64,000 nt of DNA from Nannocystis bainbridge. GTDB taxonomy: Bacteria > Myxococcota_A > Polyangia > Nannocystales > Nannocystaceae. The stretch's first letter is position 1; each line of letters starts with the position of its first letter. The notes beneath the pieces were generated by a model. It saw only the letters and a program-made list of their open reading frames with translations. It was not told where the DNA came from and did not search any database. The translations under genes were made by a program, and so were the position numbers. The stretch is taken from NCBI RefSeq assembly GCF_028368995.1, contig NZ_JAQNDL010000003.1:896001-960000 (forward strand), in the 5' to 3' direction. This document shows, piece after piece, positions 3,816 through 53,347 of this stretch.

Positions 3816-4808
3816 ATGGGCTCGCACCTGCCCGCGCGCCTGTTCGCGTTCGCCGTCGGCCTCGGCCTCGAAGAGACAGGGCTGCGCGCGCGCACCGGCC
3901 TCGGCGCCGCCGCGCTCGCCGATCCCGACGCGCGCGTGCCCCTGTCCGGCGTCTACGAACTGATCGAGGCCGTGTGCGAGCGCCTCGGCGACGTCGCCAG
4001 CCTGCGCTTCATCGCCGGCATCGAGGCCGGCGACCTCGACGCGCTCGGCTTCCTCCTCAACACCTGCCCCGACCTCGGCGTCGCGCTCGCCCGCTTCGTC
4101 GCCTTTCAGGCCCTCTACAACGACGGCGAGCGGTTCGAGGCGATCGACGTCGGCGACGACGCCGTGGCCCTGCGCTACACCCCGTTCGGCCCGCCCCGGC
4201 GCGCGCACGCGTGGATGGCCGAGGTCACCTTCCTCGATTTCCTCGTCAACGGCCCGCGCTGGCTCGGCCGCGATCTCGAGGTGCGCGCAGTCAGGTTGCG
4301 GCGCGTGCCGACCGAGGATCTCGAGCTGCGGCGCGCGCTCGGCCCGGTCGAGTTCGGGGCGCTTTGCGACGAGCTGGTGCTGCCGCGCGCGGCATTGCAG
4401 GTGCGCATGCCGGGCGCAGACCCGGCGATGCAGGCGTTCTTCGAGCGATTCGCCCGCGACCAGCTCGCGCGTCTGCCGAAGGATGGCAGCCTGCGGGCGC
4501 GCGTGCGGGCGCAGGTGGCCGCGCGGCTGCACCAGGGCGCGCCGACCCTGCTCGAGCTCGCGGAAGCCCTCGGGCTGGCCCCGCGGACCCTCCAGCGCAA
4601 GCTGCAGGCCGAGGGCGAGACGCTCGCGGCCCTGGTCGACGCCGTTCGCCGCGAGCGGGCCGCCGCGCTGCTCGCCGGCCCGCAGCCGCTCTCGGAGGTC
4701 TCGTACCGGCTCGGCTTCTCGGCCCCGAGCGCCTTCTTCCGCGCGTTCCGCCGCTGGACCGGCGAGACCCCCGAGGCCTACCGCGTCCGGGTCCGCACAG
4801 GTCCCTGA
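3816..4808 (+). CDS. AraC-family transcriptional regulator, divergent from the Rieske oxygenase
   Basis: C-terminal LAEALGLAPRTLQRKL...LGFSAPSAFFRAFRRWTGETP, with an N-terminal arabinose-binding-2-type domain. Confidence 0.9.
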   Translation: MGSHLPARLFAFAVGLGLEETGLRARTGLGAAALADPDARVPLSGVYELIEAVCERLGDVASLRFIAGIEAGDLDALGFLLNTCPDLGVALARFVAFQALYNDGERFEAIDVGDDAVALRYTPFGPPRRAHAWMAEVTFLDFLVNGPRWLGRDLEVRAVRLRRVPTEDLELRRALGPVEFGALCDELVLPRAALQVRMPGADPAMQAFFERFARDQLARLPKDGSLRARVRAQVAARLHQGAPTLLELAEALGLAPRTLQRKLQAEGETLAALVDAVRRERAAALLAGPQPLSEVSYRLGFSAPSAFFRAFRRWTGETPEAYRVRVRTGP

Positions 4809-4832
4809 GGACATGTCCCTCGGGACCTATCA
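4795..4832. repeat. 14-bp-period palindrome array, 3 units
   Basis: GCACAGGTCC / GGACATGTCC / GGACCTATCA, core C at 4798, 4812, 4826. Spans the araC stop codon. Confidence 0.65.
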
Positions 4833-4851
4833 TCATAGTCTCCGAGCGACC

Positions 4852-4895
4852 AAAAAACGATGACGCGGGCCGGGGTCCGGCGCCCGCGTCATCGT
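4852..4895 (-). terminator. Rho-independent terminator for the minus-strand gene 4934..5200
   Basis: 14-bp inverted repeat ACGATGACGCGGGC / GCCCGCGTCATCGT followed by a T-run on the minus strand. Confidence 0.8.
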
Positions 4896-4933
4896 CGATT
4901 CTTCAGTGAATCAGCGCCCTGGTCCCGTGGGGA

Positions 4934-5200
4934 TCAGGCCCGGGCGGCGAAGCGGCGGATCTCCTCGCGGAACCACGAGTCGGCCTCGTCGGTGAACTTG
5001 TAGTTCTCGCGGATGTACGCCATCGTGTCCTTCTCGACATCGGTGTACTTGCCGCCGTCGGTGACGGCGCCGATCAGCTCCTTGGCGTCGGTGAGGGAGA
5101 TGCGACCGTCGCCCTTGCCGGCGGTGGTCCGCTCGGCGATCTCGAGCATCTGCTTGTCGAACTTCTTGCCTTCGATGATCTTGTAGTACGTCTCGGACAT
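4934..5200 (-). CDS. Conserved small hypothetical protein (88 aa)
   Basis: MSETYYKIIEGKKFD...GKGDGRIS...YTDVEKDTMAYIRENYKFT. Typical coding codon usage, EF-hand-like GDGRIS loop. Confidence 0.8.
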   Translation of the reverse strand: MSETYYKIIEGKKFDKQMLEIAERTTAGKGDGRISLTDAKELIGAVTDGGKYTDVEKDTMAYIRENYKFTDEADSWFREEIRRFAARA

Positions 5201-5245
5201 GGTGCCGGGGACGATACCGAACATGGCGGGCTCATGCATGACCGC

Positions 5246-7294
5246 TCATCGCCGGCGTCGACGGGCGAATGCGAGCAGCACCAGCAGCAGGGCCGCCGGC
5301 GGGCGCGTTGTCGCGCGGCAGCCACAACCCTCGCCTGACCCCTCCGAACCGGCGGTCGCGCCCGAATCGCTCGCACCGCCGGTTTCGCTCGCATCGCCGC
5401 CCGTGAGGCCGCCGGCGGTCGGGTCGTCTCCGGTATTCGCCGTCGTGGTCGGGGCCGAGTCGCCGCCCGAGGGCTCGGGCCCGTCGGTGGGATCGCTACC
5501 GGTGGTCGGCCCGTCGCTCGTCGACCCGTCGCTGGTGCCCGGGCCGTCCGAGGTCTCGCCGTCGCTGGTCTCGCCGCCCGGGTCACCGCATTGCGGCGGC
5601 GGGGTGGTCTCGTCGACGCCCTCCGCCCGCGGGCCGTAATTCGGCGCGTCGCAGCCGGCCTCGAGCGCGCCGAGGTCGGGCGCCGCGCCGAGGAACCCGC
5701 CGTATCCGTGGAGCAGAGCGCCGGCGTCGACCGCGAGCGAGCTCGGGGACAGGCTCACGTCGACCGCCTCGACGACCGGCATGTAGCTGGTGGGCGCGAC
5801 GTAGCCGCTGGCGAAGATGTCGGCGGTGAGCAGGGTGCCGTGGGCCTCGAACACCCCGGCGGCCTGCATCGCCGCGAAGTCGGGGTAATCGCCGACGCCC
5901 TCGAACTCGAACGCGCCGTCGGGCCAGTAGCCGTTGTAGTCGATCACCGCGTTGTCGATCGGCGCGCTCAGCAGCACCGTCTGCCCGCCCTCCGGCTCGG
6001 CGCGGGTGACGTAGAGGTTGTTGACGAGGTGGAAATCGTGGGCGGTGTCGGTGGTCTGGACCTGATTGGCGCGGCTGGGGCTGACGAAGGTGTTGTGAAG
6101 GATCACCGCGCCGACGGTCTCGCCGGTGTCGCTGTTGGCGTGCAGCTTGGTCTGCTCGTCCTTGACGTTGACGACCACGTTGCGCAGCGCGTAGGCCGGG
6201 CCGCCGAAGATCGGCTGGAAGCTGAGCGGCGAATAGGAGTTGAGCAGCAGGTTGCGCATCGCCCGGGTGTTGCCGGCCGAGGCGTCGAGCTCGATCGCGT
6301 TGTCGTAGGCCGAGCGCGAGACGTTGCCGTAGATGTCGATCGCCCGCGCGCCGTCCTGCTCGGTCTTGATCGCGTCGCCCCAGCCGACCAGCTCGTTGTG
6401 ACAGACGACGTGGCCGAAGCCCTGGATGACGATGCCGTCGACGTTGGCGTTGACGCCGCCGTCGTCGGAGTAGACGTTCGGCCACGCCAGCGGGCCGGTG
6501 AGGGTGTTGTCGCAGAGGTAAAAATCGAGCTGGTCCTGACGCGCGCCGATGCCGAGGTTCACGTCCTCGATATGGAGGCGGCGGACGACGTTGCCCTCGG
6601 CGCCGGCGGTCTGGAAGCGAATGGCGCGGTTGGCGTTGCGGATCGTCAGGCGCTCGATGTGCACGTGACTGCCGTAGACCTCGAGCACGTTGCCGCCCGC
6701 GCCCTCGCCGTCGAGGATCGTGCCGGCCGTGCTGGCGCCGCGAACGACGATCGGGTCGTCGGCGGTGCCGCTGGCCTCGATCGACCAGGTGCCGCCATAG
6801 GTCCCCGCGGCCAGCTCGATGACGTCGCCCGGCTGGGCCGCGCCGAGGGCGTCACCGAGGCCGCCGGCGTCGCTGACCTGGATCACCTTGGGCGCGGCCG
6901 GATCGCCCGGCACCGGCCGGGTGCTGGCGGTCACCGTCCACGTCTCGTCGAGGCCGTCAGGGTCGCGGGCGTGCAGCTCGAGCTCGTAGGTGGTGTCGGG
7001 CCGCAGGTCGAACACGCTGCCGGCGAACTGCTGCGGCACCTGCAGGTTCACGACCTCGGGCCGCACGCGGAACAGCGGCGCGCCGACCTGCCACGCGGCC
7101 TCGCCCATGACGCGGTAGCGCAGCTCGATCGCGGCGTCACGATCGTCGTCGCCGGCGATCAGCACCTGCACGCCGAGAGTGACCACCGTGGGCCGGTCGA
7201 GCACGGTCTCGAGGATCTGCAGGTCGTCGGCGGCGCGCGCAGGCGCGGCAGTCGTGACGATGGCAGCAGCAGCGAGGAGCGGGATCGTACGCAT
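5246..7294 (-). CDS. Secreted pectin-lyase-like beta-helix protein with FnIII-like N-domain, Thr/Gly linker and MYXO-CTERM anchor
   Basis: Signal peptide MRTIPLLAAAAIVTTAAPARA, AQPGDVIELAAGTY beta-helix start, C-terminal GCGCRA...LLLVLLAFARRRRR. Confidence 0.85.
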   Translation of the reverse strand: MRTIPLLAAAAIVTTAAPARAADDLQILETVLDRPTVVTLGVQVLIAGDDDRDAAIELRYRVMGEAAWQVGAPLFRVRPEVVNLQVPQQFAGSVFDLRPDTTYELELHARDPDGLDETWTVTASTRPVPGDPAAPKVIQVSDAGGLGDALGAAQPGDVIELAAGTYGGTWSIEASGTADDPIVVRGASTAGTILDGEGAGGNVLEVYGSHVHIERLTIRNANRAIRFQTAGAEGNVVRRLHIEDVNLGIGARQDQLDFYLCDNTLTGPLAWPNVYSDDGGVNANVDGIVIQGFGHVVCHNELVGWGDAIKTEQDGARAIDIYGNVSRSAYDNAIELDASAGNTRAMRNLLLNSYSPLSFQPIFGGPAYALRNVVVNVKDEQTKLHANSDTGETVGAVILHNTFVSPSRANQVQTTDTAHDFHLVNNLYVTRAEPEGGQTVLLSAPIDNAVIDYNGYWPDGAFEFEGVGDYPDFAAMQAAGVFEAHGTLLTADIFASGYVAPTSYMPVVEAVDVSLSPSSLAVDAGALLHGYGGFLGAAPDLGALEAGCDAPNYGPRAEGVDETTPPPQCGDPGGETSDGETSDGPGTSDGSTSDGPTTGSDPTDGPEPSGGDSAPTTTANTGDDPTAGGLTGGDASETGGASDSGATAGSEGSGEGCGCRATTRPPAALLLVLLAFARRRRR

Positions 7295-7380
7295 GCGCCA
7301 GGCAGCGTAGACAAAAACCGCGGGCGGTTGCGCCCGGGGCCGGGCCGGCGGACGTGGGCCAGGCCGGGGCCGCGGGCACA

Positions 7381-9063: not shown

Positions 9064-9178
9064 GGACCGAGCCTATCAACGTCGTGCATCGGCACGGCGG
9101 AGGCTCTGCAATTTTTCGCCCGCGATTGTCACGACCACGTGCCGGCGGTGCACGCCGGCTCGCGGGTCGACCTTGCGC

Positions 9179-9736: not shown

Positions 9737-10034
9737 GGTGAAATCCTCGATCCGCAAGCGTGGGCCGACCTCCGACACCGGCAACCACGCGCCCCAGCCG
9801 ACCCCCGCGTATCCCCGGTCGTCCGCTCGCCCCACTCCATCGATTCCTGTAGAGACCGTCACGTCCCGCCGGCGGCGGCTCCGCGAGTCCGACGCCGGAG
9901 GGAGGATCTCCGCGAGCCTGCTCGGGCGCAGGCGCGGCCCCCGACACCGCCAAGGCCGCCCGGCCGGCCGCGGAATCTGGCCCTTACCGCGGCGAGCGCC
10001 GCGCCGCGGCATGGCCGCAGGTTTGGGTACAAAA

Positions 10035-10100
10035 GGACATGCTCGTTTGGACATGTCCTCGTGTACATGTTCCTTCAAACATGCCCGATCGGGCATATCT
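10035..10100. repeat. 14-bp-period palindrome array, 5 units
   Basis: Core C at 10038, 10052, 10066, 10080, 10094 (GGACATGCTC, GGACATGTCC, GTACATGTTC, AAACATGCCC, GGGCATATCT). Confidence 0.9.
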
Positions 10101-13651: not shown

Positions 13652-13675
13652 GGACATGTCCCCGAGGACATGTCA
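13652..13675. repeat. 14-bp-period palindrome pair
   Basis: GGACATGTCC CCGA GGACATGTCA, immediately before the probable kinase start. Confidence 0.8.
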
Positions 13676-19368: not shown

Positions 19369-19487
19369 TCACATGCCTCTTTAGCCATGTCCGAAGCGAC
19401 ATCTATGTAGAGCCCGGCACGTCCACTCCGCGCGGCCTCGACGCGGCGGCAACATGTCCACGAGGACATGTCTCTTCAGCCATGCAT
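19369..19487. repeat. Two 3-unit 14-bp-period palindrome sub-arrays
   Basis: Cores at 19372/19386/19400 and 19453/19467/19481. Begins directly after the stop at 19368. Confidence 0.8.
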
Positions 19488-20741: not shown

Positions 20742-23261
20742 CTAGCCGCCCTCGCTCGCCTTGCGGGCCGCGTCCTCGATCCGGCGCTGCTCCGCGGCGT
20801 CGATCACCCCGTCGCGCAGCGCCCGGTCGACCTCGCGGCGGACCGCCTCGCCGGCGCGCACGCGAGCGCGCTGGGCTCGCTTGGCCTCCTCGGTCGCGCG
20901 CCGGCTCTCGGCCTGCGCCCGCCGGCCATCGGCCTGCACCCGCCGGGCCTCGGCCTCGACCTGCACCCGCTCGCGGTCGGCGCGACGCTGCTCGCTCAGC
21001 ACCTCGCGCTGGGCCGCCCGCTGCGCCTCGTCGAAGCCGCGCTGGCGCTCACGGTCGGCGCGCTGCAGCTCGCGGGCCGACGCTCGCAGCGAGCGCTCGA
21101 CCTCGCGTTCGACCTCCGCGGTGAGGTCGTCGACGTCGAGGTGCTCGAGCGCGTCGGCCAGGCCGGCGAGGTCGAGGTGCTCCACCTTGCGCTCGACCTC
21201 GGCCGCGATCTGCTCGGCGCGACCGGTCAGCTCGGCCAGCTGCTCCGGGCTCAGCTCGGGCGCGCGGCGGGCCAGCTCGGCCGCGCGGGCCTTGAGCGCC
21301 TCGACCTTGGCCGCGTCGAGCTTGCTCGCCTGCTTGGCGATCGCCGCCGCCGCTCGCTCGAGATCGCGGAGCTGCTTGACGTCGATCACCTTGGCCTGGA
21401 CCGCCAGCTTGCCGCCCTGGCGCAGCAGCTTCTCGGTCGTGCGCGGGACCACCCGCACGTGCGAGCGCGACGGCCCGTGATCGTCGGAGCAGCTGTCGTC
21501 GTGCTCGACCGTCACCGCCAGGCGAACCCCGGGCGGCGTCGGCGGCGTCGGCGGCGTCGGCGGGCGCGGGCTCACCACGATCTTCGGCGGCGTCGGCGGC
21601 GTCGGCGGGCGCGAGCCCACCGCGAACTTCGGCGGCGTCGGCGGCATCGCCATCACCAGCGGTGGCGTCGGCATCCCGCGCATCGCCGGCTCCGGCACGA
21701 ACACGTGCATTGGCGCGCTCGGCCCGCTCTCGTACTGAAGTCGCACCGCCTTGCGCTCATGTCGCTCGGCGCGACGCAGCGCGCGGCGTTGCTTGACCGT
21801 CGGCGACGGCTCGCCCATCGCGCCCGGGGGCGGCGGCGCGGCCACGCCGAGCAGCGACCCCGGCGGCACCGGCGGCGCCGGGGCCACGCCGAGCACCGTC
21901 GTCGGCGCTGCCCCGCTCGTCGCCGCGAACACCGGCTCCGGCATCAGCTCGGGCGGCTCGTCGGGCGCGGGCGGCTCGGGCACCTCGGCGCGCGCGATCG
22001 ACAGCGAAAGACCCGGCGCGCCGAGCCCGACCATCGCCAGCAGCGCCGCGCCCAGCAGCCCGCGCCAGCGCCTGGCCCAGCGGCCGCGGTCGCGCGTGCG
22101 GGCGTCGAGCAGGCGCTCGACCCGACGGACCAGCAGCGAGCTGCGCGCCGCCATCGGGCTGACGAACTTTTCGAACCTGTCCGATCGGCCAGGCCACTGC
22201 GCGACCTCGGTCAGACAGCGAGCCAGGTGCAGCCCCGACCCGGTGTGGCGCACCGCCCAGTCGTCACACAGCTCCTCGGCCGCCTCCTGCATGCCGCGGC
22301 GGGCCACCCGGTTCAGCGGCTGGAAGAACAGCGCCGCCTCGAGCACCGACGCCAGCACCTGCCAGGCCGGATCGCGGCGCAGCACGTGGGCCAGCTCGTG
22401 GGCCAGCATCGCCTCCTGCTGGCGCGGCGCCAGCCCGTGCGCCCGCGCCGGCACCACGATCTCGCGGCTGGCCAGGGCCATCGGCGAACCTACCCGTTCG
22501 GACATGGTCAATCGGACACTGTCCTGAGGGACACGTACGTGCGCCATCAGCCGCGCCAGCCGCTCGCGCAGCGGGCCCTGACGCAGCGGCGTGCGCCCGC
22601 GGAGCCCGCGACGCAGCCGCACCGCGGTCGCCCCGAGCCGGCCGAGCGACAGCGTCGCCCCGAGCCCGAACAGACCGGCGAAGATCCACGCGGCCAGCCC
22701 GGCCTGCGACTCGCCCCCCGCCGCGACCACGGGCCCCGGCGCGAGCGGCGGGGCCGGCGGCACGAACGACGGCGCCGCGAACACCACCGGCTCGAACTCG
22801 CCGATCGTCGCCGACTCGACGAACACGACGTGCTCGACCTGCACGTGCCCCGGCGCGGCCAACATCGCCGTCACCTCCGCGTCGGCGAGCAGCATCCCCG
22901 GCGGCTCGCAGCCGACGCACCCGTGCACCTGCGGCATCGCCACTGCGACCTCCAACGGCGGCGGCGCCATCGCGGTGGCCGACATCGGCGGCGGCCCGGG
23001 CGGCCCCAGCGAGCCCGCCTCGACGTTGACGCTGCCCAGCAGCGGCTCGACCCCGAGCCCGGTCTGCAGCGTCGCCGTGAACAGCCCGCCGACCAGCGAC
23101 ATCTTCCAAAGCAAGCTGCGGGTCAGCGCGTCGAGCGGGAGGAAGCGGGTGAATGCCCACACCCCGCCGACCAGCACCGAGCTGTGCACGAAGTACGTGC
23201 CCAGCCAGCTCACCACCGTGTGCACCGCCGGGTCGGCGAGAGAGGCTGCAGGATCAAGCAT
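20742..23261 (-). CDS. BlaR1/M56-family membrane metallopeptidase with Pro-rich and coiled-coil C-terminus
   Basis: AHELAHVLRRD, FFQPL, EELCDDWA motifs and TM helices. Its start overlaps the blaI-like stop. Confidence 0.9.
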   Translation of the reverse strand: MLDPAASLADPAVHTVVSWLGTYFVHSSVLVGGVWAFTRFLPLDALTRSLLWKMSLVGGLFTATLQTGLGVEPLLGSVNVEAGSLGPPGPPPMSATAMAPPPLEVAVAMPQVHGCVGCEPPGMLLADAEVTAMLAAPGHVQVEHVVFVESATIGEFEPVVFAAPSFVPPAPPLAPGPVVAAGGESQAGLAAWIFAGLFGLGATLSLGRLGATAVRLRRGLRGRTPLRQGPLRERLARLMAHVRVPQDSVRLTMSERVGSPMALASREIVVPARAHGLAPRQQEAMLAHELAHVLRRDPAWQVLASVLEAALFFQPLNRVARRGMQEAAEELCDDWAVRHTGSGLHLARCLTEVAQWPGRSDRFEKFVSPMAARSSLLVRRVERLLDARTRDRGRWARRWRGLLGAALLAMVGLGAPGLSLSIARAEVPEPPAPDEPPELMPEPVFAATSGAAPTTVLGVAPAPPVPPGSLLGVAAPPPPGAMGEPSPTVKQRRALRRAERHERKAVRLQYESGPSAPMHVFVPEPAMRGMPTPPLVMAMPPTPPKFAVGSRPPTPPTPPKIVVSPRPPTPPTPPTPPGVRLAVTVEHDDSCSDDHGPSRSHVRVVPRTTEKLLRQGGKLAVQAKVIDVKQLRDLERAAAAIAKQASKLDAAKVEALKARAAELARRAPELSPEQLAELTGRAEQIAAEVERKVEHLDLAGLADALEHLDVDDLTAEVEREVERSLRASARELQRADRERQRGFDEAQRAAQREVLSEQRRADRERVQVEAEARRVQADGRRAQAESRRATEEAKRAQRARVRAGEAVRREVDRALRDGVIDAAEQRRIEDAARKASEGG

Positions 23262-39677: not shown

Positions 39678-41036
<1,359 letters not shown>

Positions 41037-41141: not shown

Positions 41142-41909
41142 TCACGCTCGCGCCGTCACCGCGACGACGATCGCCGTGATGTTGTCGCGCGACCCGGCGA
41201 GGAATGCCTCGTGCACCAGCCGCTCGCACACCTCCTCGACCGGCCCGGCCGCCAGCAGCGCCGCGATCGTCTCCTCGGAGAGCGGCCCCGTCAGCCCGTC
41301 GGTGCACAGCAGCAGGCGATCGCCCGCGCGCAGCTCGACCCGGTGCAGCTCCGGTCGCTCCTCCTCGTGGGGCCCCAGCGCCCGCGTGATCACGTTCGCG
41401 TAGCCGAACTCCGCCAGCGGCCCGACCGCGACCCCGCCGTCGCGCAGCTGCTCGTACAGCGAGTGATCGCGCGTCAGCTGCACGAGCGACGGGCCACCTG
41501 TCTCTTCGCGCAGGCGGTACACCCGGCTGTCGCCCAGGTGGGCCACGATCGCCGAGCTCCCCAGCAGCGACACCAGCGCGATCGTCGAGCCCATGTCGCG
41601 CAGCGAGCCCTGGCGGCTCCCGCAGATCCGCCGGTTCGCCAGGCGGATCGCCGCGTCGACCCGGTTCTCCGCCATCGTGAGCGATGGGTCGAGCCCGTAC
41701 GGCCAGGTCGCCTCGGCGTCGGTCGTCACGTGCTGGAAGAACTCCGCCAGCGACTCGACCGCCAGCCGGCTCGCCACCTCCCCGCCCGCGTAGCCGCCCA
41801 TGCCGTCGGCGACGGCGAACACGCCCTCCACCGGCGCGAGCAGATACGCGTCCTCGTTGTGGTGGCGACGACCGACGAACGTGTGCGCGCTGGCGACGAA
41901 GGCATGCAT
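41142..41909 (-). CDS. PP2C-family Ser/Thr phosphatase (Pph1-like)
   Basis: RBS AGGAGG, NED, VADGMGG, HLGDSRVY, LCTDGL, DNIT. Confidence 0.95.
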   Translation of the reverse strand: MHAFVASAHTFVGRRHHNEDAYLLAPVEGVFAVADGMGGYAGGEVASRLAVESLAEFFQHVTTDAEATWPYGLDPSLTMAENRVDAAIRLANRRICGSRQGSLRDMGSTIALVSLLGSSAIVAHLGDSRVYRLREETGGPSLVQLTRDHSLYEQLRDGGVAVGPLAEFGYANVITRALGPHEEERPELHRVELRAGDRLLLCTDGLTGPLSEETIAALLAAGPVEEVCERLVHEAFLAGSRDNITAIVVAVTARA

Positions 41910-42156
41910 GCCCACCTCCTTCCAAGCCGCGCGCCGCGGCCAAGCCCGCGACAATTCACGCACCCCTGGCGACCGCACACCCCACCCGTCGGGCCCCTCC
42001 CCAGGAGGGGTGGAGACTCGCCACCTCAGCGCGGAGGACGCAGCGCCAGCTCGCGCGCCTTCCCGTCACTCCCACCATTGGCCCGCGCATTCGCGGACGA
42101 TCGGGGAGCCCGCCGCCTCGCGTGTGACGCTCACGTCGCGAGGACCTGGCCCGTCG

Positions 42157-43291: not shown

Positions 43292-43834
43292 TCATTCGCG
43301 CGTGAGCACGAAGATCCGGTCGACGCACGCCTCGCCGCGCCAGATCGTCTCCACCGCCGCCTCCTCGATCATCCCCAGGCGGCGCGCCAGCGCCAGCGAG
43401 CGCAGGTTGCGGTCGTCGATCGTCACCTGGATCCGCGTCACCCCCAGCTGCGCGAACGCGTAAGTAAACACCGCGCGGACCGCCTCGCTGGCCAGCCCCC
43501 GGCCCTGCTGCGCCGTCATCAGCGTATAGCCGATCTCCACCGTCGTCGGCTCGCCTGCCATCACGCGCAGGCCGATGTCTCCGATCAGCGCGCCGTCGGC
43601 GTGCAGCGCCAGGGCGAACTGGTACCACACGCCCGGCACCCCGGGCCGGGCGCCCTGCAGCCCGGCGATGAAATCACGCGCCTGCGCCTCGTCGAATTGT
43701 GACCACCCCTGATAGCGGGCCACCTCCGGGTCGGCGCGATAGGCCACCAGGATCGGCGCATCCGCCTCGCGGAACGCCCGGATCTGCAGCCGCGGCGTGG
43801 TGATGAAGCAACCTGTCTCTTCAAACATACTCAC
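43292..43834 (-). CDS. GNAT acetyltransferase (RimJ/RimL family)
   Basis: TPRLQIR, YRADPEVARYQGW, EIGYTL, QGRGLASEA, NLRSLALARRLGM. Confidence 0.92.
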   Translation of the reverse strand: MSMFEETGCFITTPRLQIRAFREADAPILVAYRADPEVARYQGWSQFDEAQARDFIAGLQGARPGVPGVWYQFALALHADGALIGDIGLRVMAGEPTTVEIGYTLMTAQQGRGLASEAVRAVFTYAFAQLGVTRIQVTIDDRNLRSLALARRLGMIEEAAVETIWRGEACVDRIFVLTRE

Positions 43835-46340
43835 CAGCCCCGGAGAAGAACAGCCCCGCCCCGCGCAGCAGCCGCGGCGCCTCGGCGGTCGTGGCGATCG
43901 CGTGCGCGCTCGCTTCGTCGGTCGGCGCCGGCAGCCGCGCGTCGCGGCCGATCGCCAGCAGCGCCCCGTCGAAGCTCTGCGCGAGGCGGGCCGCCGCCAC
44001 GCAGGCGTCCCCCCGCAGGTGCGTCGCCAGCCGCGCCACGCTCGCCGCGTCCGCGCGCCAGCTCTGCAGCTGCTCCGCGAGCTGGCCCCGCCGCGCCGCC
44101 GTGAAGCGCTCCGGCGTCACCCCGCGCTTGTGCCAGAGGCGCACGATCGTCTGCGCCCCCGGCAATGTCGGCACCTGCGCCGGCTCACCCAGCCACGCCA
44201 TCGCTGCCAGCAATTCGTGGAGCGACGCCCCGGCCGGATCGAGCACGATCGCCAGGCCGCCGCGGATCAGCTCCGCCGCCAGCGCCAGGCGGAATCGCCG
44301 CTCGCGTGGGTCCTGGCGCACGATCGGCGGATACACCACGATCGTCGGCTCGCGCTCGTTGCGAATGCCCACACCGCCCTCGGGTCCGCCGCGGCCGACG
44401 CGGACCTGCAGCCGCGATCCCGTGCGCGCGCGCAGCCACGCCAGCGTCGGCTCGACCTGCGCCAGCACCTGCGCCGTCACCTCCGCGTCCGCCGGCACCA
44501 GCTCGCGCGCGGCACGGATCCCCGCCGTCGCCGCCGTCAACGCCTGCAAGCTCCCGCGGATCGCCTCACGCGGCTCGCCGACGTCCTCGCTCGCCGCCGT
44601 CGGCGTCTCCTCGCCCGCCTCACCGACCTCGATCTCGACCCCTGCGATCGCGCACCCTGGCAGCAGGAAACTCGCCACCTGTCGCAGCGCTCGCGCGCGC
44701 CCCGGCTCACCTGTCTCTTCGACCATCTCTGCCAGCGCCAGCACCGCGCCCGGCTCGAGCGAGCGGGCCGCCCGCGCTTGCAGCTCCGTGCGCACCCGCC
44801 TGCGATCCGCGCGCCCCGGGCCACCCGCGATCGCCTCGCCTGGCAGCCCCTCGCGCGCCCGGTGCAGCGCCGCAGCCGCGATCTCGCTCGCCGCTCGCTC
44901 CGCCTCGGCTACGTCGCGCCCGCAGCGGCGGCCCGCCGCGGCCACCCGCGCCTGCAGCTCGGCCGGCTCGCACCACGCTCGCTCGCACCGCTCATCTGCC
45001 GCCAGCGCCGCGTCGACGGCCGCCTCGACCTGCTCGCTCGCCACCTGCGGATCGCCGGCCCGCGCGATCGCCAGCGCTCGCCACGCCGCCGCCTGCGCCG
45101 CCGGCCCCCCGCTCCACGCCATGTCCTCGACGCCCGATCGCGCTCGCCCGCCCCACGACATGTCCTCGAGGACAGCCCGCGCACGACCTCCGGCCCCCAG
45201 CAGCTCCGCCTCGGCCAGCGCTCGCGCCACCCGCCGCCGCGACCGCGCCGCCGGCGGGCCCGGCATTCGCTCGAGCGTCGTCAGCCCGCGCACCACCGCC
45301 TCCGCCTCGCCGGCGCGCGCCTGGGCCACGATCACCCGCCACCACGCCTCCGGGTCGTCGGGCGCCGCCGCCAGCCACGCCCGCACCGCCGCTCCTGCCC
45401 CCGCGCGGTCGCGGAAGCGCAGCAGCTCCGCCTGCACCTGCGCCAGCGCCCGCGTCAGCCGCCGCGCCCCCGGGTGCGTCGGCGCCGGCGCGTAGCTCAG
45501 GGCCGCCAGCGCCGCCGCGCGATCACCTGCCCGCAGCGCCGCCCGCAGCTCGGCCAGCGGATCGTCCAGTCCTTCGGACATGTCTTCTCGCGCATGTCCC
45601 TCGGGAAATGTCCGAAAGGGCATGTCCTCACGAACATGTCCTTGTGGACCTGACCCATGGGCCACGTCCGCCAGCACCACCCGCAGCCCGCGGCCTTCCC
45701 CGCGCACCCGCGTCACCGCCAGCCCGAGCGTGCGCGGCGGGCTCGTCCCGGCCGCGCGGAACGCCCGGCGCAGCAGCCACTCCGGCCGGACCCGCAGCGT
45801 GTCCGCCGCGACCGTCACCACCCCCTCGCGCCCGAGCGCCAGCCCGCGGGCCACCGCCGACCACAGGGCCGTCCCCGAGGGCGCCAGCGGTCCGGTCGCC
45901 CACACGCGACGGGCGCGCACGCAGATCTCTCCTGCCTCCGCCGTCGCCGTGAGCTCGATCTGGGCCAGCGCCGGCCAGCCGTCGTCGCGCGGCCCGCTCA
46001 GCGTCAGCACCGCCGCCTCGCCGGCGAGATCTACGCCGACCTGCTCGATCGGCCAGCCGCCGATCGGCAGCCCGCGCAGCGACTGCGCCGCCGCCGCGAG
46101 CGCCTCCGCGGTCACCTCCAGGCGGGCCTCGAGCGCGCGCCAGCGGCCGTCCCGCAGCCCCGCCGTCGCGCCCTGCGGCTCGCCGATCGGCTCGGCGATC
46201 AGGCCCGTCAGGCGCAGCCCGGGCGCCAGGTCGGCCGGGCCGGCGTGGAGCCGGACCCGCGGGCCACCTGGCCCCTGGGCCAGCTCGAGGCGGAGGCCGA
46301 GGCCGCTCGCCTGTCCGTCACGACCGGTCGCGGACGCCAT
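43821..46340 (-). CDS. Large Ala/Arg-rich hypothetical protein with TPR-like helices, carrying an in-frame repeat array
   Basis: Fills the gap between the co-oriented ppiD-like and GNAT genes. TPR-like helical segments. Confidence 0.65.
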   Translation of the reverse strand: MASATGRDGQASGLGLRLELAQGPGGPRVRLHAGPADLAPGLRLTGLIAEPIGEPQGATAGLRDGRWRALEARLEVTAEALAAAAQSLRGLPIGGWPIEQVGVDLAGEAAVLTLSGPRDDGWPALAQIELTATAEAGEICVRARRVWATGPLAPSGTALWSAVARGLALGREGVVTVAADTLRVRPEWLLRRAFRAAGTSPPRTLGLAVTRVRGEGRGLRVVLADVAHGSGPQGHVREDMPFRTFPEGHAREDMSEGLDDPLAELRAALRAGDRAAALAALSYAPAPTHPGARRLTRALAQVQAELLRFRDRAGAGAAVRAWLAAAPDDPEAWWRVIVAQARAGEAEAVVRGLTTLERMPGPPAARSRRRVARALAEAELLGAGGRARAVLEDMSWGGRARSGVEDMAWSGGPAAQAAAWRALAIARAGDPQVASEQVEAAVDAALAADERCERAWCEPAELQARVAAAGRRCGRDVAEAERAASEIAAAALHRAREGLPGEAIAGGPGRADRRRVRTELQARAARSLEPGAVLALAEMVEETGEPGRARALRQVASFLLPGCAIAGVEIEVGEAGEETPTAASEDVGEPREAIRGSLQALTAATAGIRAARELVPADAEVTAQVLAQVEPTLAWLRARTGSRLQVRVGRGGPEGGVGIRNEREPTIVVYPPIVRQDPRERRFRLALAAELIRGGLAIVLDPAGASLHELLAAMAWLGEPAQVPTLPGAQTIVRLWHKRGVTPERFTAARRGQLAEQLQSWRADAASVARLATHLRGDACVAAARLAQSFDGALLAIGRDARLPAPTDEASAHAIATTAEAPRLLRGAGLFFSGAGEYV
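45576..45669. repeat. 14-bp-period palindrome array, 7 units, inside ORF 43821..46340
   Basis: Cores at 45579, 45593, 45607, 45621, 45635, 45649, 45663. Translates as GPQGHVREDMPFRTFPEGHAREDMSE. Confidence 0.9.
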
Positions 46341-46367
46341 GGGTCTGCGACCTGTCCCTTCAGTCAG

Positions 46368-48179: not shown

Positions 48180-48412
48180 GTCCCGGCGAAGCTAGCGGTA
48201 AGACGGCCCCTGGGAAACTCCGGACCGCCTGCGGGCCCGCGGAATACGCCGGCCGGGTGCCGCGTTGGCCGCCGCGGAGCCGGCGCTCCGCGCTCCTGGG
48301 CCCGAAGCCGGCGGACGCTCGTCGGTTGTGAGAAAAGCCGCAAGCCTCACGCACAACGCCGCTGACTTGCCGCCGACGACTTCGGCGGGTACACCCGAAC
48401 GCCGCGCGCAGC

Positions 48413-49444
48413 ATGCTCTTTGACTGGGTATACGGCCTGTTCTCCAACGACATGGCCATCGACCTCGGGACCGCCACCACCCTGACGTACGTCAAGGGTA
48501 GGGGGATCGTCGCCCACGAGCCCAGCGTGGTGGCCGTGCAAAAGAAGGGCAGCACCAAGCGGGTCGTCGCCGTCGGCAAGGAGGCCAAGGAGATGCTGGG
48601 GCGCACGCCCGGCAGCATCACCGCCATCCGGCCGATGAAGGACGGCGTCATCGCCGACTTCGAGGTCACCGAGGCGATGATGCGGCACTTCATCAACCGG
48701 GCCCACAACCGCCAGACCCTGGTCAAGCCGCGGATCGTCATCTGCGTGCCCTCGGGCATCACCGAGGTCGAGAAGCGGGCGGTCAAGGACTCGGCGCTGG
48801 CGGCCGGGGCGCGCGAGGTGTTCCTCATCGAGGAGCCGATGGCCGCGGCGATCGGCGCCGGCCTGCCGATCACCGAGCCGGGCGGCAACATGGTCGTCGA
48901 CATCGGCGGCGGCACGGCCGAGGTCGCGGTGATCTCCCTCGCCGGGATCGTCGCCTGCAAGAGCATCCGCGTCGGCGGCGACAAGATCGACGAGGCGATC
49001 GTCCAGCACGTCAAGCGCAAGTACAACCTCCTGATCGGCGAGCGGACCGCCGAGCGCATCAAGATCCAGATCGGCACCGCCGCGCCGATGCGCAACTTCA
49101 TGACGATGGAGGTCAAGGGCCGCGACCTGGTCGGCGGGATCCCCAAGACCATCGTCGTCGACAGCGAGGAGATCCGCGAGGCCGTCAGCGAGCCGGTCGC
49201 GGCGATCGTCGAGGCCGTGCGCATGGTGCTCGAGGCCGCCCCGCCCGAGCTGTGCGCCGACATCGTCGACAAGGGCATCGTCCTCACCGGCGGCGGCTCG
49301 CAGCTGCGCAACCTCGACGTCCTCCTGTCCGAAGAGACAGGCCTGCCGTGCTTCGTGTGCGACGAGCCCGAGTTCGCGGTCGTGCTCGGCACCGGCGCGG
49401 TCCTCGACGAGCTCGACCTCCTCCGCGAGGTCGCGCTCCAGTAG
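48413..49444 (+). CDS. mreB: Rod shape-determining protein MreB
   Basis: [46 protein letters not shown]. Confidence 0.98.
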
Positions 49445-49457
49445 GGAGCCCCGGAGG

Positions 49458-50336
49458 ATGGCCGGCCTCCGCAGCGCCAAGAACGCGGTCCTGGTCGCGA
49501 TCCTGCTCGGGATCCCGGCGCTCCTGCTGCGCTCGAGCTTGCAGGACCCACGCGCGCTCGGCGGCTTCGACCGCATGGCCGTCAAGATCGGCGCCCCGCT
49601 CGAGGCCGGCATCAGCTACGCCGCCGGCAACGCCGGCCGGTTCTTCGAGCGCTGGCTGCTGCAGGCCCGCCTGCAGGACGACAACGAGACGCTCGCGGCC
49701 GAGAACCGCAAGCTCCGGCTCGACCTGCGCGGCCTGCTGCAAGTGGAGGAAGAGAACCGCGAGCTGCGGCGTTCGCTGCAGATGCGCGACAAGGTCGCCG
49801 AGGACATGCTCGCCGCCGAGGTCGCGGGCGTCGAGCAGTCGCCGTTCTTCCGCGTCGTCAAGCTGCGGCTCGACCGCGGCGACCGGGTCGTGCGCCCCGG
49901 CATGGCCGTGATCGCCGACGCCGGCGTGGTCGGCCGCATCGACCGCGCCGCCGGCGACCACAGCGAGGTCATGCTGATCACCGACCCACGCAGCAAGGTC
50001 GCGGTCGAGATCGCCAGCACCCGCGCGCCCGGAATCCTCGAGGGCATCGGCGAGGACCGCTGCGTCGTCCACGTCGCCGCCGACCTCGGCGTCAGCGTCG
50101 GCGACCTGGTCCAGACCTCCGGCGTCGACGAGCTGTTCCCCCGCGGCCAGCCGGTCGGCCAGGTCGTGCGCGTCGACGACGTCGTCGGCGCCCAGCAGCG
50201 CGTCCACGTCATCCCCGCCGTCCGCTTCGACCGCCTCGACATGGTGTGGGTGGTCCTCGCCAGCGCCCCCGCCCCCGACCCCGAGGGCGCCAACCGCCCG
50301 CCCGCCGCCGCCTACGGCCTCGGCCCGCTGCAGTGA
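49458..50336 (+). CDS. mreC: Rod shape-determining protein MreC
   Basis: TM, coiled coil (EEENRELRR), GMAVI...GVVGRI, LITD, TSG...FPRG, and position after mreB. Confidence 0.95.
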   Translation: MAGLRSAKNAVLVAILLGIPALLLRSSLQDPRALGGFDRMAVKIGAPLEAGISYAAGNAGRFFERWLLQARLQDDNETLAAENRKLRLDLRGLLQVEEENRELRRSLQMRDKVAEDMLAAEVAGVEQSPFFRVVKLRLDRGDRVVRPGMAVIADAGVVGRIDRAAGDHSEVMLITDPRSKVAVEIASTRAPGILEGIGEDRCVVHVAADLGVSVGDLVQTSGVDELFPRGQPVGQVVRVDDVVGAQQRVHVIPAVRFDRLDMVWVVLASAPAPDPEGANRPPAAAYGLGPLQ

Positions 50337-50387
50337 TGCCCATGCCCATGCCCATGCCCACGCCGACCGCCGCCGCCCGCATCACCG

Positions 50388-50467
50388 CGACATGTCCGCA
50401 AGGACATGTCCATGAGGACAGCGCTGATCGTACATGTCTCTTCGGACATGGCCCTTCGAGCATCCTC
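50388..50467. repeat. 14-bp-period palindrome array, 6 units, between mreC and mreD, preceded by (ATGCCC)x4
   Basis: Cores at 50391, 50405, 50419, 50433, 50447, 50461. Hexamer run at about 50336-50359. Confidence 0.88.
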
Positions 50468-50496
50468 GGACATCAAGGTCCCATGCCCCACGGCTC

Positions 50497-51096
50497 ATGC
50501 GCCCCCTGATCTACATCGCCCTCGGCTGGCTGCTCCTGGCCGCCGTCGGCGGCCTCGGGCAGACGCTCGGGCTCACGATCATGCTGCCGGCCACCTCGGC
50601 CGCGCTGGTCGCCCACGTCGTGTTCGGGCGCGAGCTCTCGCTGCCGAGCGGCCTGCTGGTCGCCGTCAGCCTCGGCTACCTCGAGGACCTGGCCCAGGGG
50701 ACGCCCATCGGCCTGCTGTCGCTGGCCTATGGCCTGTCGTGCTGCGCCCTCGTGTGGTCGAGCCGGCGCCTCGCCGTCGAGGGCCCGATCGCGCGCGCCC
50801 TCGCGGCCGGGGTCGCCGCCGCCCTCGTCGACCTCGTCACCTTCGCCCTCCTCTTCTCCGTCCGCTTCCGCCTCGGCGTCGACACCGAGGCCCTCGTCAC
50901 CGGCCTCCTGCAGGCCCGCTGGCACGCCCTCGCCACCGTGCTCGCCGCCCCTGGCGTGTTCGTGCTCGCCGAGCTGGCCCTCGGCGCCTGGGACCGCGCC
51001 TTCGGCCGCCGGCCCCGCCCCGCTCGCCGCTCGCCGCTGCAGGCGCGCAGCGCCGGCTCCACCCTCGAGGGCGACGGCCCGTCCGATTGGACATGA
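50497..51096 (+). CDS. mreD: Rod shape-determining protein MreD
   Basis: Hydrophobic protein with LGYLEDLAQGTPIG, located between mreC and mrdA. Confidence 0.85.
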   Translation: MRPLIYIALGWLLLAAVGGLGQTLGLTIMLPATSAALVAHVVFGRELSLPSGLLVAVSLGYLEDLAQGTPIGLLSLAYGLSCCALVWSSRRLAVEGPIARALAAGVAAALVDLVTFALLFSVRFRLGVDTEALVTGLLQARWHALATVLAAPGVFVLAELALGAWDRAFGRRPRPARRSPLQARSAGSTLEGDGPSDWT

Positions 51097-51100
51097 CCCG

Positions 51101-53347
51101 ATGACCAGCCTACGCGAGCCCGACGACCTCCGCGCCCTGCGGCCCCGGCTGCAGGCGATGGTGCTCGTGGTCCTGCTCGCGCTGATGGTCCTGCTCGGGC
51201 GCCTGTGCCAGCTGCAGGTGCTCGAGGGCGAGCACTACGTGCGTCGGGCCGAGCGCAACTTCATCGACACCATCGAGGCCCCGGCCCTGCGCGGGCGGAT
51301 CTTCGACGCCCAGGGCCGGCCGCTCGCCGCCAACCGCCCGGCCTACACCCTCTACGTCACCCCGCGGCCGCGCATCGTCGTCGAGACCGACGACCCGCGC
51401 GCGCGCACCCAGACCGGCTCGCGCGTGCCGCTGTCCGACGCCCAGATCGACGCCCTCGCCGACCTCGTCGATTTCGTCGACGCCGCCGACCGCGAGCAGT
51501 TCACCGCCGCGATCGTGCGCCGGCGCGACCGCGACGAGGGCATCTATCCGTTCGCCGTGCGCGGCAACCTGACCTGGCAGGAGTTCGCGCGGATCCAGAC
51601 CCGCAAGGACGCCCTCGGCGACTGGCTCGAGATCCGCGAGAGCGCCCGCCGCTTCTATCCTGCCGGCGAGCTCACCGCTTTCGTCACCGGCTACGTCGGC
51701 GAGATCACCCCCGAGGGCCTCGCCAACTCCGCCGGCTCCTACCGCCCTGGCGACCGCGTCGGCAAGACCGGCATGGAGCGGCAGTGGGAGAACTACCTGC
51801 GCGGCCGCCCTGGCAAGCGCTCGCGCGTCGTCGACGTCCACCATCACCCGGTCAAGGACCCGCCGCGCGACGCCCTCGCCGCCTTGCCGCCTGACGAGGA
51901 CCCGATCCCCGGCCAGGACGTCTACCTCACCCTCGACCTCGACCTGCAGCGCGTCGCCGCCGAGGCGTTCGCCGACAAGCCCGCCGGGGCGCTCGTCGCC
52001 ATCGAGCCTGACACCGGCCGGATCGTCGCCATGATCAGCGTGCCGGCGATCGATCCCAACCGCTGGCAGCAGCCGATCGGCCGCGACCAGTACAAGGCCT
52101 GGTCCGAGAGCCTGCTCAAGCCCTTCATCGACCGCACCGTCCAGGAGCACTACTTCCCCGGCTCGACCTACAAGGTCGTCTCGGCCCTGTCCGCGCTCGA
52201 CGACCCGACCTTCGACCCCGAGAAGACGATCACCTGCGACGGCTACGTCAACTACGGCGGCCGCCGCTTCAAGTGCACGCACAAGCACGGCCCCGTCAAC
52301 CTCGAGCAGGCGATCGTGCAGTCGTGCAACGTGTACTTCTACACGCTGGCGATCGACACCGTGCTCAGCCTCGAGCGCATGGAGCTGTTCGCTCGCCGGC
52401 TCGGCCTCGGCGAGCGCACCGGCATCGGCATCAACAGCGAGGCCAAGGGTCGCATCCCGACCGAGGCCTTCGAGGCCCGCGAGGGCACCTACCAGCGCGG
52501 CGTCCGCCTCAACAGCGCCATCGGCCAGGGCAACGTCACCGCCACCGTCTTGCAGGTCGCCGTGCTCTACGCCGCGATCGCCAACGGCGGCCGCGTCATG
52601 ACCCCTTACATCGTCGACCGCATCGAGACCCCCGACCGTCGGCTCGTGCTGCAGAACAAGCCGCAGGTGCGCCGCGACCTCGAGCCGGTCCTGCCCGCCG
52701 ACCGCGACCGGATCCACGCTGGCCTCACCGGCGTCGTCAACAACGAGCTCGGCACCGCCTACAGCGAGCGGCTCGGCAGCGTCGTCGTCGCCGGCAAGAC
52801 CGGCACCGCCCAGGTCGGCGCCCTCGACAAGAAGAACAAGAACCCCAAGCCCGGCCCGATCCCCGGCTTCGACTTCAACCAGGACCACGCCTGGTTCGCC
52901 GGCTACGCCCCCGCCGACGCGCCCAAGATCGTCGTCGTCGCCTTCGTCGAGCACGGCGGCGTCGGTGCCGACGCGGCCGCGCCGATCGTCATGAAGGTCG
53001 TCGAGAGCTACCTCGGCAGCCGCTCCGAGACCCCCCAGCCGCGGCGCCCCGGCGGCGTCCCGCCGCCGCTGCCCGGCAAGCGCGGCCAGCAGGAGCTGCT
53101 CGGCGACAGCAACGCCACGCCCGACCGCGCCGTCGCCCTCACCGGCGCCCGCCTGCCCGGCGACCGCCCGCTCGGCCCGCCGCCGCCCAAGACCGAAGAG
53201 ACAGGTCTTTCCGGACATGTCGCAAAGGCCAGCTCGTTCGCGGGCTCGAGCCAGCCCGCCAAGAAGAAGAAGCAGCCCGGCCACAAGCCCGCCGCGCCCA
53301 AGCAATCGAAGAAGAAGAAGTCCGCCGCCAAGGAGCTCCTGCCGTGA
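51101..53347 (+). CDS. mrdA: Penicillin-binding protein 2
   Basis: RGRIFD, GKTGMER, PGSTYK (SxxK), SCN, KTGTAQ, DHAWF, with a Pro/Lys-rich tail. Confidence 0.96.
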   Translation: MTSLREPDDLRALRPRLQAMVLVVLLALMVLLGRLCQLQVLEGEHYVRRAERNFIDTIEAPALRGRIFDAQGRPLAANRPAYTLYVTPRPRIVVETDDPRARTQTGSRVPLSDAQIDALADLVDFVDAADREQFTAAIVRRRDRDEGIYPFAVRGNLTWQEFARIQTRKDALGDWLEIRESARRFYPAGELTAFVTGYVGEITPEGLANSAGSYRPGDRVGKTGMERQWENYLRGRPGKRSRVVDVHHHPVKDPPRDALAALPPDEDPIPGQDVYLTLDLDLQRVAAEAFADKPAGALVAIEPDTGRIVAMISVPAIDPNRWQQPIGRDQYKAWSESLLKPFIDRTVQEHYFPGSTYKVVSALSALDDPTFDPEKTITCDGYVNYGGRRFKCTHKHGPVNLEQAIVQSCNVYFYTLAIDTVLSLERMELFARRLGLGERTGIGINSEAKGRIPTEAFEAREGTYQRGVRLNSAIGQGNVTATVLQVAVLYAAIANGGRVMTPYIVDRIETPDRRLVLQNKPQVRRDLEPVLPADRDRIHAGLTGVVNNELGTAYSERLGSVVVAGKTGTAQVGALDKKNKNPKPGPIPGFDFNQDHAWFAGYAPADAPKIVVVAFVEHGGVGADAAAPIVMKVVESYLGSRSETPQPRRPGGVPPPLPGKRGQQELLGDSNATPDRAVALTGARLPGDRPLGPPPPKTEETGLSGHVAKASSFAGSSQPAKKKKQPGHKPAAPKQSKKKKSAAKELLP

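Follow-up and report, generated by a model that had tools for sequence, protein, structure and literature searches.

The codon-overriding 11-mer of a Nannocystis bainbridge chromosome segment is one spelling of a 14-bp-phased dyad word found across the genus

Several kinds of short sequence are hyper-abundant in single bacterial lineages. The HIP1 octamer (GCGATCGC) of cyanobacteria is described, in the portion of PMC5861425 drawn on here, as 15- to 300-fold over-represented and conserved inside open reading frames (ORFs) as well as between them, with no peptide, RNA or regulatory role; a link to cognate orphan methyltransferases is proposed in the corresponding portion of PMC4390886. The uptake signal sequences (USS) of Pasteurellaceae and the DNA uptake sequences (DUS) of Neisseriaceae are lineage-specific, prefer certain frames within genes and inflate the peptides that they encode, according to the part of PMC2817400 used here. 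REP/BIME and REPIN elements, associated with RAYT transposases, are short palindromic repeats that occur in clusters (PMC3733652, PMC3116915, both in part), and a GTAG or CGTC tag is conserved at one extremity of REP/RAYT palindromes (PMC3733652, in part). Here we describe an 11-mer, GAAGAGACAGG, that recurs in a 64,000-nucleotide stretch of Nannocystis bainbridge (contig NZ_JAQNDL010000003.1, positions 896,001 to 960,000 of the forward strand; hereafter the window). This 11-mer spells, in a manner that coding permits, a single copy of the 14-bp dyad word TGTC-N6-GACA, read in the frame (Leu/Met)-x-Glu-Glu-Thr-Gly. HIP1 is the known system closest in kind, and within the known kind of hyper-abundant, lineage-specific short palindromes the Nannocystis word is new in being a strictly spaced, phased dyad word with conserved intragenic copies. 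No prior description was found among the papers listed on repeats and palindromes of Nannocystis and other myxobacteria; subscription journals and supplements lay outside that search, so one may exist.

The window contains six copies of GAAGAGACAGG, against a mean of 0.01 in 100 dinucleotide-preserving shuffles, none of which reached six. Because the G+C content of the window is 70-74%, an A-rich 11-mer is unexpected there. A reading of the letters alone (the sequence-only reading) had placed the copies in the sense orientation of six genes and had regarded them as a DNA motif hidden in coding sequence. Its coordinates and strands were exact (Table 1), and all six copies read GAA GAG ACA GG, or Glu-Glu-Thr-Gly (EETG), within ORFs. 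Five of the gene names given are supported by Pfam, namely AraC-type (PF12625/PF12833), PP2C (PF13672), GNAT (PF13302), MreB (PF06723) and PBP2-type transpeptidase (PF00905/PF03717), whilst the 839-aa ORF has no Pfam match. The contrast drawn with EET followed by residues other than Gly also stands, the four cases (25162, 41276, 44612 and 62058) being spelled GAGGAGAC(C/G). The statement that other xETG tetrapeptides use ACC is correct for four of the five cases in the window, the exception at 39888 being spelled GAGACAGGT. This site (39888-39899) encodes L-E-T-G as CTC GAG ACA GGT CCC, holds the variant core GACAGGTC and is another intragenic use of the rare ACA and GGT codons outside EETG. 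The near-reverse complement reported from arrays, CATGTCTCTTC, is present at 19467 and 50433, and the 14-bp phase reported at 53195 is found as GACAGGTC at 53200 followed by GACATGTC at 53214. The window is the densest cluster of GAAGAGACAGG in the genome, with six copies in 64 kb where the genome-wide average predicts 0.52; the next densest holds five.

The assembly searched comprises 11.05 Mb in 5 contigs, with 71.5% G+C and a completeness of 90.5%. In total, 90 copies of GAAGAGACAGG were found, compared with 1.8-4.7 expected under Markov models of order 0-5. This places GAAGAGACAGG 57th by observed/expected ratio among the 114,018 11-mers with at least 40 copies, and nearly all of those ranked above it are overlapping pieces of one pattern (e.g. 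GTCCGAAGGGA, TGTCCGAAAGG and AAGGGACAGGT). A maximal-order Markov test gave 90 observed against 81 expected, but is uninformative since sub-words of GAAGAGACAGG are enriched as well. Thirty four copies are intergenic, 34 lie in the sense frame GAA GAG ACA GG, 17 in an antisense frame and 5 elsewhere; the antisense frame shares its third positions with the sense frame, and the 17 may include strand errors of the gene caller. The claim that every EETG is encoded by the 11-mer is true of the window (six of six), yet genome-wide only 34 of the 71 EETG in called genes are spelled in this way. Codon usage alone (GAA 8.8% of Glu, ACA 2.2% of Thr) predicts 0.12. The rare codon GGT follows in 24 of these 34, and the spelling GAGGAGACAGG accounts for none of the 71.

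In 60 shuffles, synonymous codons were permuted within each gene over the interiors of 6129 confidently called genes (7.11 Mb after removal of 60 nt at either end). The 11-mer occurs 22 times in these interiors against 0.23 in the shuffles, and its reverse complement 13 times against 0.67. The dyad word TGTC-N6-GACA occurs 899 times against 57.5 +/- 6.6, a 15.6-fold excess, and the longer form CTGTC-N6-GACAG 265 times against 4.9. Controls with altered spacing gave 28 against 11 for N5 and 85 against 64 for N7. The intragenic TGTC-N6-GACA units are divided among the three frames as 72/379/448. These data, together with the conservation of third positions described below, uphold the earlier proposal of a DNA-level signal that overrides codon bias, and they contradict ordinary codon-pair bias. 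An origin in codon-pair bias, a shared peptide, a paralogous family or chance has a negligible probability in our judgement. Some copies do fall in recurrent protein motifs: the EETG of MreB, two REL.EETG segments that we take to be Nudix-box-like, and three copies in one repeat protein (contig C3, 715.6-715.8 kb). However, over a third of all copies are intergenic, as counted above, and their flanks are unrelated. Moreover, CTG or ATG stands two codons upstream in 30 of the 34 motif-encoded EETG but in only 7 of the other 37, which argues that the signal is a DNA word rather than a peptide.

The sequence-only reading had taken the EETG-encoding 11-mer to be the selected site. This part of the claim proves too narrow, since the same override is seen in other tetrapeptides. 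The spelling GAAGGGACAGG serves for 39 of 115 EGTG (0.04 expected), CGAGAGACAGG for 13 of 58 RETG, CGAGGGACAGG for 9 of 71 RGTG, GAAGAGACATG for 6 of 10 EETC and CCGGGGACAGG for 14 of 108 PGTG. None of the 30 EDTG, for which the spelling would break the right arm, is motif-encoded. Among 3648 in-frame ACA codons, 2446 follow a G and 1399 of the latter have TG at the place of the left arm (TG-N8-GACA); the dyad word therefore accounts for about 38% of the uses of this rare codon. The same context surrounds 57% of the ACA codons that follow a G, compared with 10% of such ACC and 11% of such ACG codons.

Aligned on the 11-mer, the 90 genomic copies share the consensus [C/A]TG[G/T]CC before it and a T after it, with nothing shared further out. 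TG is found at -5/-4 in 77 copies and the full TGTC in 24; within the window only the mreB copy has a perfect left arm. In addition, ten letters of the 11-mer recur in TGTCCGAAGAGACA, one of the ten commonest 14-mers of the whole genome (79 copies). The tie that had been proposed between GAAGAGACAGG and the array motif is supported. The commonest 14-mers are spellings of the dyad unit and include fully palindromic ones, with the spacers CCCGGG (81 copies) and CTCGAG (66 copies). Spacing is strict: TGTC and GACA are separated by 6 nt in 3663 places, about one per 3 kb, against 78 at N5 and 120 at N7, and other spacings up to 30 yield 29-189 copies each, except for N20 (984), which is the next unit. 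The fuller form of the word is [A/C]TGTCC-YNNR-GGACA[T/G], its outer TG...CA being the most constant letters, and the position profile reads (G)(G)AC[A/C]TGTCC..GGACA[T/G]GT(C)(C). Arms and spacing alone are common to the copies, between which the spacers are highly diverse. The spacers nonetheless favour C first and G last, and at their centre CG, GA/TC and AA/TT over TA, AG/CT and AC/GT; these preferences explain GAA rather than GAG in GAAGAGACAGG. The centres of the half-sites are 10 bp apart, about one helical turn.

Units abut head to tail, sharing ACATGT junctions, and form arrays with a phase of exactly 14 bp. There are 2237 copies of the palindromic junction GACATGTC (73% intergenic), and distances between cores are 14 bp in 1759 cases, 28 in 736, 42 in 605, 56 in 286, 70 in 109 and 84 in 57, as against only 8 and 13 cases at 13 and 15 bp. 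The phase is maintained even across degenerate units, and arrays of phased cores extend to 7 units. Some arrays are literal tandem repeats of 14 or 28 bp, and arrays can therefore grow by slippage. Literal tandem arrays were noted at C3:1085869, C3:160213 and C3:1206250 of the genome that holds the window; one tandem array consists of eight near-identical GAGGTCATG[T/C]CCCT units of 14 bp, and repeats of a 28-bp unit also exist.

The dyad word is specific to the genus Nannocystis, occurring almost nowhere else among the genomes searched. All 10 congeneric genomes searched carry the two-core pattern GACATGTC-N6-GACATGTC, which beyond the genus turned up in one of 8 further genera of the family (2 hits) and in none of 12 other families. 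Copy numbers are 90-147 each way in the five congeners with genomes of 12-13 Mb and 1-24 in the five that are smaller or fragmented, with a reversed control giving 0 everywhere. Likewise, GAAGAGACAGG occurs 76-110 times in the five large congeners and 9-12 times in the five small ones, its reversed control 0-5 times.

Conservation was assessed for this 64-kb window against five congeners only, each represented by about 80 kb of syntenic DNA, of which 42-52 kb aligned at 85-88% identity. Four of the six copies of GAAGAGACAGG are ancestral (41497, 43812, 44710 and 53195), whilst those at 3870 and 49331 are specific to this genome. At 44710 and 53195 none of the five relatives differs by a single letter, and 10-11 of the 11 letters are kept in all five at 43812. 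At 41497 four relatives are identical and the fifth has GAAGGGACAGG, the commonest sister spelling, for which Glu had to give way to Gly. Third positions with A or T were kept in all five relatives in 8 of 10 cases inside the 11-mers, compared with 105 of 542 (19%) generally (binomial P(>=8) ~6e-5). In intergenic units identity to the five relatives is 0.88 in the arms, 0.59 in the inner spacer and 0.58 in the outer flanks, and at 13657, 55259 and 60709 the spacer has turned over with arms and spacing retained.

Two genes bear on how the word may enter coding sequence. In mreB, two distant congeners read CTC TCC GAC GAG ACC GGC. Four of the five close relatives read CTG TCC GAC GAG ACA GG (TGTCCGACGAGACAGG, with Asp), already a perfect unit, whereas ACC is retained in the fifth. 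GAA is found in this genome only, where it changes Asp to Glu in a conserved motif and gives the favoured spacer. Read from these alignments, the mreB unit has been improved stepwise by point mutation, with ACC changing to ACA in the clade and then GAC to GAA here. The EETG copy of the PP2C gene occupies a loop with 4 residues more than its counterpart in two distant congeners and in five of six homologues from other genera. The placement of the gap is not unique and some of the homologues may be paralogues, so that a motif-bearing insertion of 12 nt is no more than possible at this site.

Of the 3663 TGTC-N6-GACA units, 2312 are intergenic and 37% overlap gene calls. At least one perfect unit is present in 42% of convergent intergenic regions, compared with 18-22% of tandem and 12% of divergent ones, and unit density falls from 3.5 per kb in convergent to 0.5 per kb in divergent regions. 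In tandem regions units lie a median of 73 nt from the upstream stop and 191 nt from the next start. Arrays of 4 or more units number 169, of which 107 are in convergent regions, 50 in tandem regions, 2 in divergent regions and 10 in gene calls. The window itself holds 21 perfect units, 15 of them intergenic.

We favour a reading in which the word is recognised as duplex DNA, on the grounds that the N6 spacing is strict, palindromic 14-mers are common, single arm changes dominate, the transcribed strand is not preferred, copies that do not fold are conserved and the half-site centres are 10 bp apart. The dyad word would then be the recognition site of a predicted dimeric, sequence-specific DNA-binding protein, a proposal for and against which we see the balance as even. 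Each unit would bind one dimer on double-stranded DNA, its half-sites lying about one helical turn apart, and arrays at gene 3' ends would bind a phased row of dimers with an insulating, terminating or chromosome-structuring role. Intragenic units would be bound less strongly by that protein and maintained by selection through synonymous and occasionally non-synonymous codon choice. As RNA or single-stranded DNA the arrays can also form hairpins, through which they may in addition work in the manner of a terminator.

The principal rival is that the units are REP-like hairpins, that is, inverted repeats that fold in RNA or single-stranded DNA and serve as bidirectional terminators or mRNA stabilisers at gene 3' ends, growing by slippage in units of 14 or 28 bp and leaving intragenic copies as by-products. 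The literal tandem arrays and the position of units, enriched in convergent regions and nearer to the upstream stop, are as this explanation would have them, but its probability appears rather low to us. A hairpin does not require a loop of exactly six nucleotides, and copies with differing spacers are not replicas of a master element. Since simple covariation on loosely defined sites was swamped by background, arm changes were counted in phased arrays, where 327 single changes (198 + 129) contrast with 67 compensatory doubles. Loops of the UUCG/GNRA type show no orientation preference for the transcribed strand (28 vs 36 for the UUCG type), and the purine content of the spacer has no relation to transcription direction once the GC-skew strand is fixed. 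Most GAAGAGACAGG copies lack a complementary left arm. The six contexts of GAAGAGACAGG in the window fold no better than shuffles (z -0.99 to +1.35) and only that in mreB can form an arm-to-arm hairpin, yet four of the copies are conserved. The signature of an intrinsic terminator is missing as well, there being no T-run after the right arm, where the position profile reads T/G, G, T, C, the start of the next unit. A search for PF01797 (RAYT) had no match in this genome, at the completeness given above, although the same search matched 6 of 14 control genomes. Rfam at its gathering threshold returned no family for the whole window. A search of sequencing runs returned only metagenomic contigs, each covering at most 0.20 of the sampled words, and such contigs show neither RNA ends nor strand.

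Several observations nevertheless weigh against duplex recognition by a dimeric protein. The location at 3' ends and in convergent regions is the pattern of hairpin elements and terminators, and two arrays fold markedly as single strands (z = -4.97 for 58211..58322, and -2.87). Compensated double changes, though few, are about 2-fold more frequent than under independence (67 vs 33). In tandem regions, stratified by skew, arm variants with a single transition favour G.U over C.A pairs in the upstream transcript (odds ratios 0.38, 0.18, 0.35 and 0.66 in four strata; p < 0.01 for the first three); a transcription-linked mutation bias could mimic this preference. The five relatives are not mutually independent, the intergenic BLAST alignments may have been anchored by the motif itself, and conservation at orthologous sites is compatible with selection and with persistent drive alike, between which it cannot separate. 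Gene-based counts are limited by our use of our own ad hoc gene caller. Lastly, a "master gene" flanked by arrays was looked for as any gene with 3 or more cores inside 250 bp on either side. This gave 41 genes, and the 25 inspected were diverse, among them lipoproteins, kinases and a sigma-54 activator; none was an obvious regulator or transposase, and no binding protein was identified in this way.

Drive of this sort would be molecular and without cellular function: a DNA-uptake receptor, biased repair or short-patch conversion would favour the word, which would spread wherever coding allows. The genus-specificity and abundance of the word are as expected from such a process. So is its behaviour in genes, where it is frame-preferred and inflates peptides (about half of EETG and a third of EGTG carry it), in parallel with what the relevant part of PMC2817400 describes. 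Units are also paired or arrayed at gene ends, and the copy in PP2C falls within the possible 4-residue insertion. Paired copies at gene ends are likewise a feature of DUS and USS. Unit density per 100-kb bin is over-dispersed (mean 33, variance 162), and the lowest value, 4 per bin, occurs in two adjacent bins at 1.1-1.3 Mb of contig C1, with 68.6-69.2% G+C and almost no GC skew. These bins (C1:1100000-1300000) may be acquired or otherwise atypical DNA, and few units in low-GC, skew-less bins are as expected if units accumulate slowly in resident DNA; recently acquired DNA would be poor in the word under drive too. However, known uptake sequences have an asymmetric, contiguous core of 9-12 nt, not a bipartite dyad, and are not known to form strictly phased arrays such as those found here. 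Furthermore, orthologous sites are kept whilst their spacers turn over, and for HIP1 conservation of sites has been used to argue for selection over replenishment (PMC5861425, in the portion drawn on here). We therefore regard drive without function as unlikely.

The sequence-only reading had held that the 11-mer is not replichore-polarised, which is true of the window (3:3) but not of the genome, where 74 of 90 copies lie on the G-rich strand. The corresponding figure for composition-matched 11-mers is 5098:2838 (64%, 1.8:1). GC skew is about +/-0.08 and changes sign within contig C3, at about 1.5 Mb, and again towards the end of C1 (~4.4 Mb), and the preference of GAAGAGACAGG flips with it within C3. 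A replichore-polar signal like KOPS or Chi, for which the 11-mer, being asymmetric, would be read in a fixed orientation with respect to replication, could be entertained on this basis. However, all spacers of the family follow one strand rule of about 2-fold per net G, and CCGAAG and CTTCGG, which have equal G and C, are split 97:96. Single-letter variants of the arms show the same asymmetry (642:337 and 110:257). The excess of G over C at the variable positions of units is larger than the intergenic skew (0.083) or the third-codon skew (0.141), and genes show no strand bias with respect to GC skew (3224 vs 3125 and 901 vs 898). The polarity of GAAGAGACAGG thus seems compositional, reflecting a general G-over-C asymmetry, and with a dyad-symmetric parent word a KOPS- or Chi-like role is very improbable. 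The skew flips in C3 (~1.5 Mb) and C1 (~4.4 Mb) are candidate positions of the replication origin or terminus.

The Nannocystis word resembles HIP1 in being a short palindrome hyper-abundant in one lineage, present in and between ORFs and conserved at orthologous sites beyond codon expectation, with no peptide-level explanation and no known function. Its over-representation, whether judged against the roughly 80-120 copies at neighbouring spacings or within genes, is of the HIP1 kind. However, HIP1 is a contiguous 8-mer, whereas the Nannocystis word is bipartite, with 4-5 + 4-5 letters around a strict 6-letter (4-letter inner) spacer, and its units form 14-bp-phased arrays at gene 3' ends, a feature that the portion of PMC5861425 drawn on here does not report for HIP1. 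USS and DUS are similarly genus- or family-specific, with hundreds to thousands of copies, many of them within genes in preferred frames, and are scarce in genes without homologues in relatives (PMC2817400, in part), a further likeness. They differ in being asymmetric and contiguous, without variable spacer or phased tandem arrays, and in that uptake bias is their defining property, whilst the Nannocystis word is defined here by its sequence.

With REP and BIME elements the word shares short palindromic units, regular arrays, a mostly extragenic position at gene 3' ends and restriction to one lineage. In contrast to REP, the position profile has no GTAG or CGTC tag, the units share only arms and spacing where REP copies replicate a whole element of 20-40 bp, and more than a third of them overlap gene calls and are kept by codon choice. 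The operators of dimeric helix-turn-helix regulators provide another comparison. Those of the TGT-N8-ACA type include the lux-box/CviR site CTG-N10-CAG, the PadR site ATGT-N8-ACAT and the LexA site CTGT-N8-ACAG, and such operators are found in tens of copies, in promoters. Dyad symmetry, constant outer TG...CA and half-sites one helical turn apart are common to both, but the Nannocystis word is present in thousands of copies, is depleted in divergent (promoter) regions and lies at gene ends and within genes.

Tentatively, and with more doubt than confidence, these data may point to an undescribed genome-wide word system of the genus, in which TGTC-N6-GACA is read by a dimeric protein, or else by dyad-specific machinery of uptake or repair, stands in phased rows at the 3' ends of a large share of genes and is imposed on coding sequence. 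If so, the word would dictate over a third of the uses of a rare codon, alter residues in conserved proteins (Asp to Glu in the EETG of MreB, Glu to Gly in PP2C) and possibly seed short in-frame insertions. It would amount to a new code for structuring the chromosome or insulating transcription, unlike HIP1, REP or uptake sequences. In any event, a non-coding constraint at thousands of sites visibly shapes codon choice and even protein sequence, and models of codon usage, dN/dS and gene prediction for the genus have to account for it. The role of hyper-abundant bacterial palindromes such as HIP1 and REP is unsettled, and here one binding protein is predicted by the strict 14-bp phase and the dyad geometry. 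The concentration at convergent ends points to a possible role in termination, insulation or supercoil management in a genome of 11-13 Mb and 71% G+C without gene-strand bias.

Table 1. Copies of GAAGAGACAGG, dyad units and arrays located in the window (coordinates are those of the 64-kb stretch).
Feature	Position	Strand	Context
GAAGAGACAGG copy	3870..3880	+	AraC-family gene (3816-4805), L-E-E-T-G; without left arm; absent from aligned relatives
Pair of cores sharing the unit at 13657	13653..13674	.	Intergenic; arms kept in 5/5 relatives, spacers CCCGAG, CGGGGG, CTCGGG, CCTGAG
Two units (19388, 19455) and CATGTCTCTTC (19467-19477)	19388..19477	.	Intergenic
Single perfect unit	22520..22533	.	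Inside gene; identical in 5/5 relatives
Single perfect unit	40802-40815	.	Inside gene; no difference in 5/5 relatives
GAAGAGACAGG copy	41497..41507	-	PP2C phosphatase gene 41145-41915 (minus); CTGCGC-GAAGAGACAGG-T
GAAGAGACAGG copy	43812..43822	-	N-terminus of GNAT gene; ATGTTT-GAAGAGACAGG-T, M-F-E-E-T-G
GAAGAGACAGG copy	44710..44720	-	839-aa ORF without Pfam family; ATGGTC-GAAGAGACAGG-T
Single perfect unit	45161-45174	.	Inside gene; identical in 4/5 relatives; only the right arm aligns in the fifth (G003)
Perfect unit TGTCCGAAGAGACA + GG	49326..49341	+	In mreB, conserved L-S-E-E-T-G-L-P motif (11-mer at 49331)
Array, units at 50393, 50407 and 50435; CATGTCTCTTC at 50433	50389..50448	.	Between mreC (ends 50333) and next gene (starts 50497)
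GAAGAGACAGG then GACATGTC in 14-bp phase	53195..53221	+	C-terminal tail of PBP2 (mrdA) gene
Single unit	55259-55272	.	Intergenic; arms kept, spacer varies among relatives
14-bp-phased array, four perfect TGTC-N6-GACA units and degenerate ones	58211..58322	.	Fills convergent gap between genes ending at 58187 (+) and 58340 (-)
Single unit	60709..60722	.	Intergenic; arms kept, spacer varies among relatives

Two further features were noted. A tandem run of about four CCCATG repeats extends from the end of mreC into the intergenic region (window 50335-50365), about 25 nt before the array that follows this gene. Elsewhere in the genome, four copies of GAAGAGACAGG lie within 1.5 kb at C3:715637-717123, the second densest cluster, and three of these are in near-repeats of one coding segment (D/E-L-A/V-E-E-T-G).

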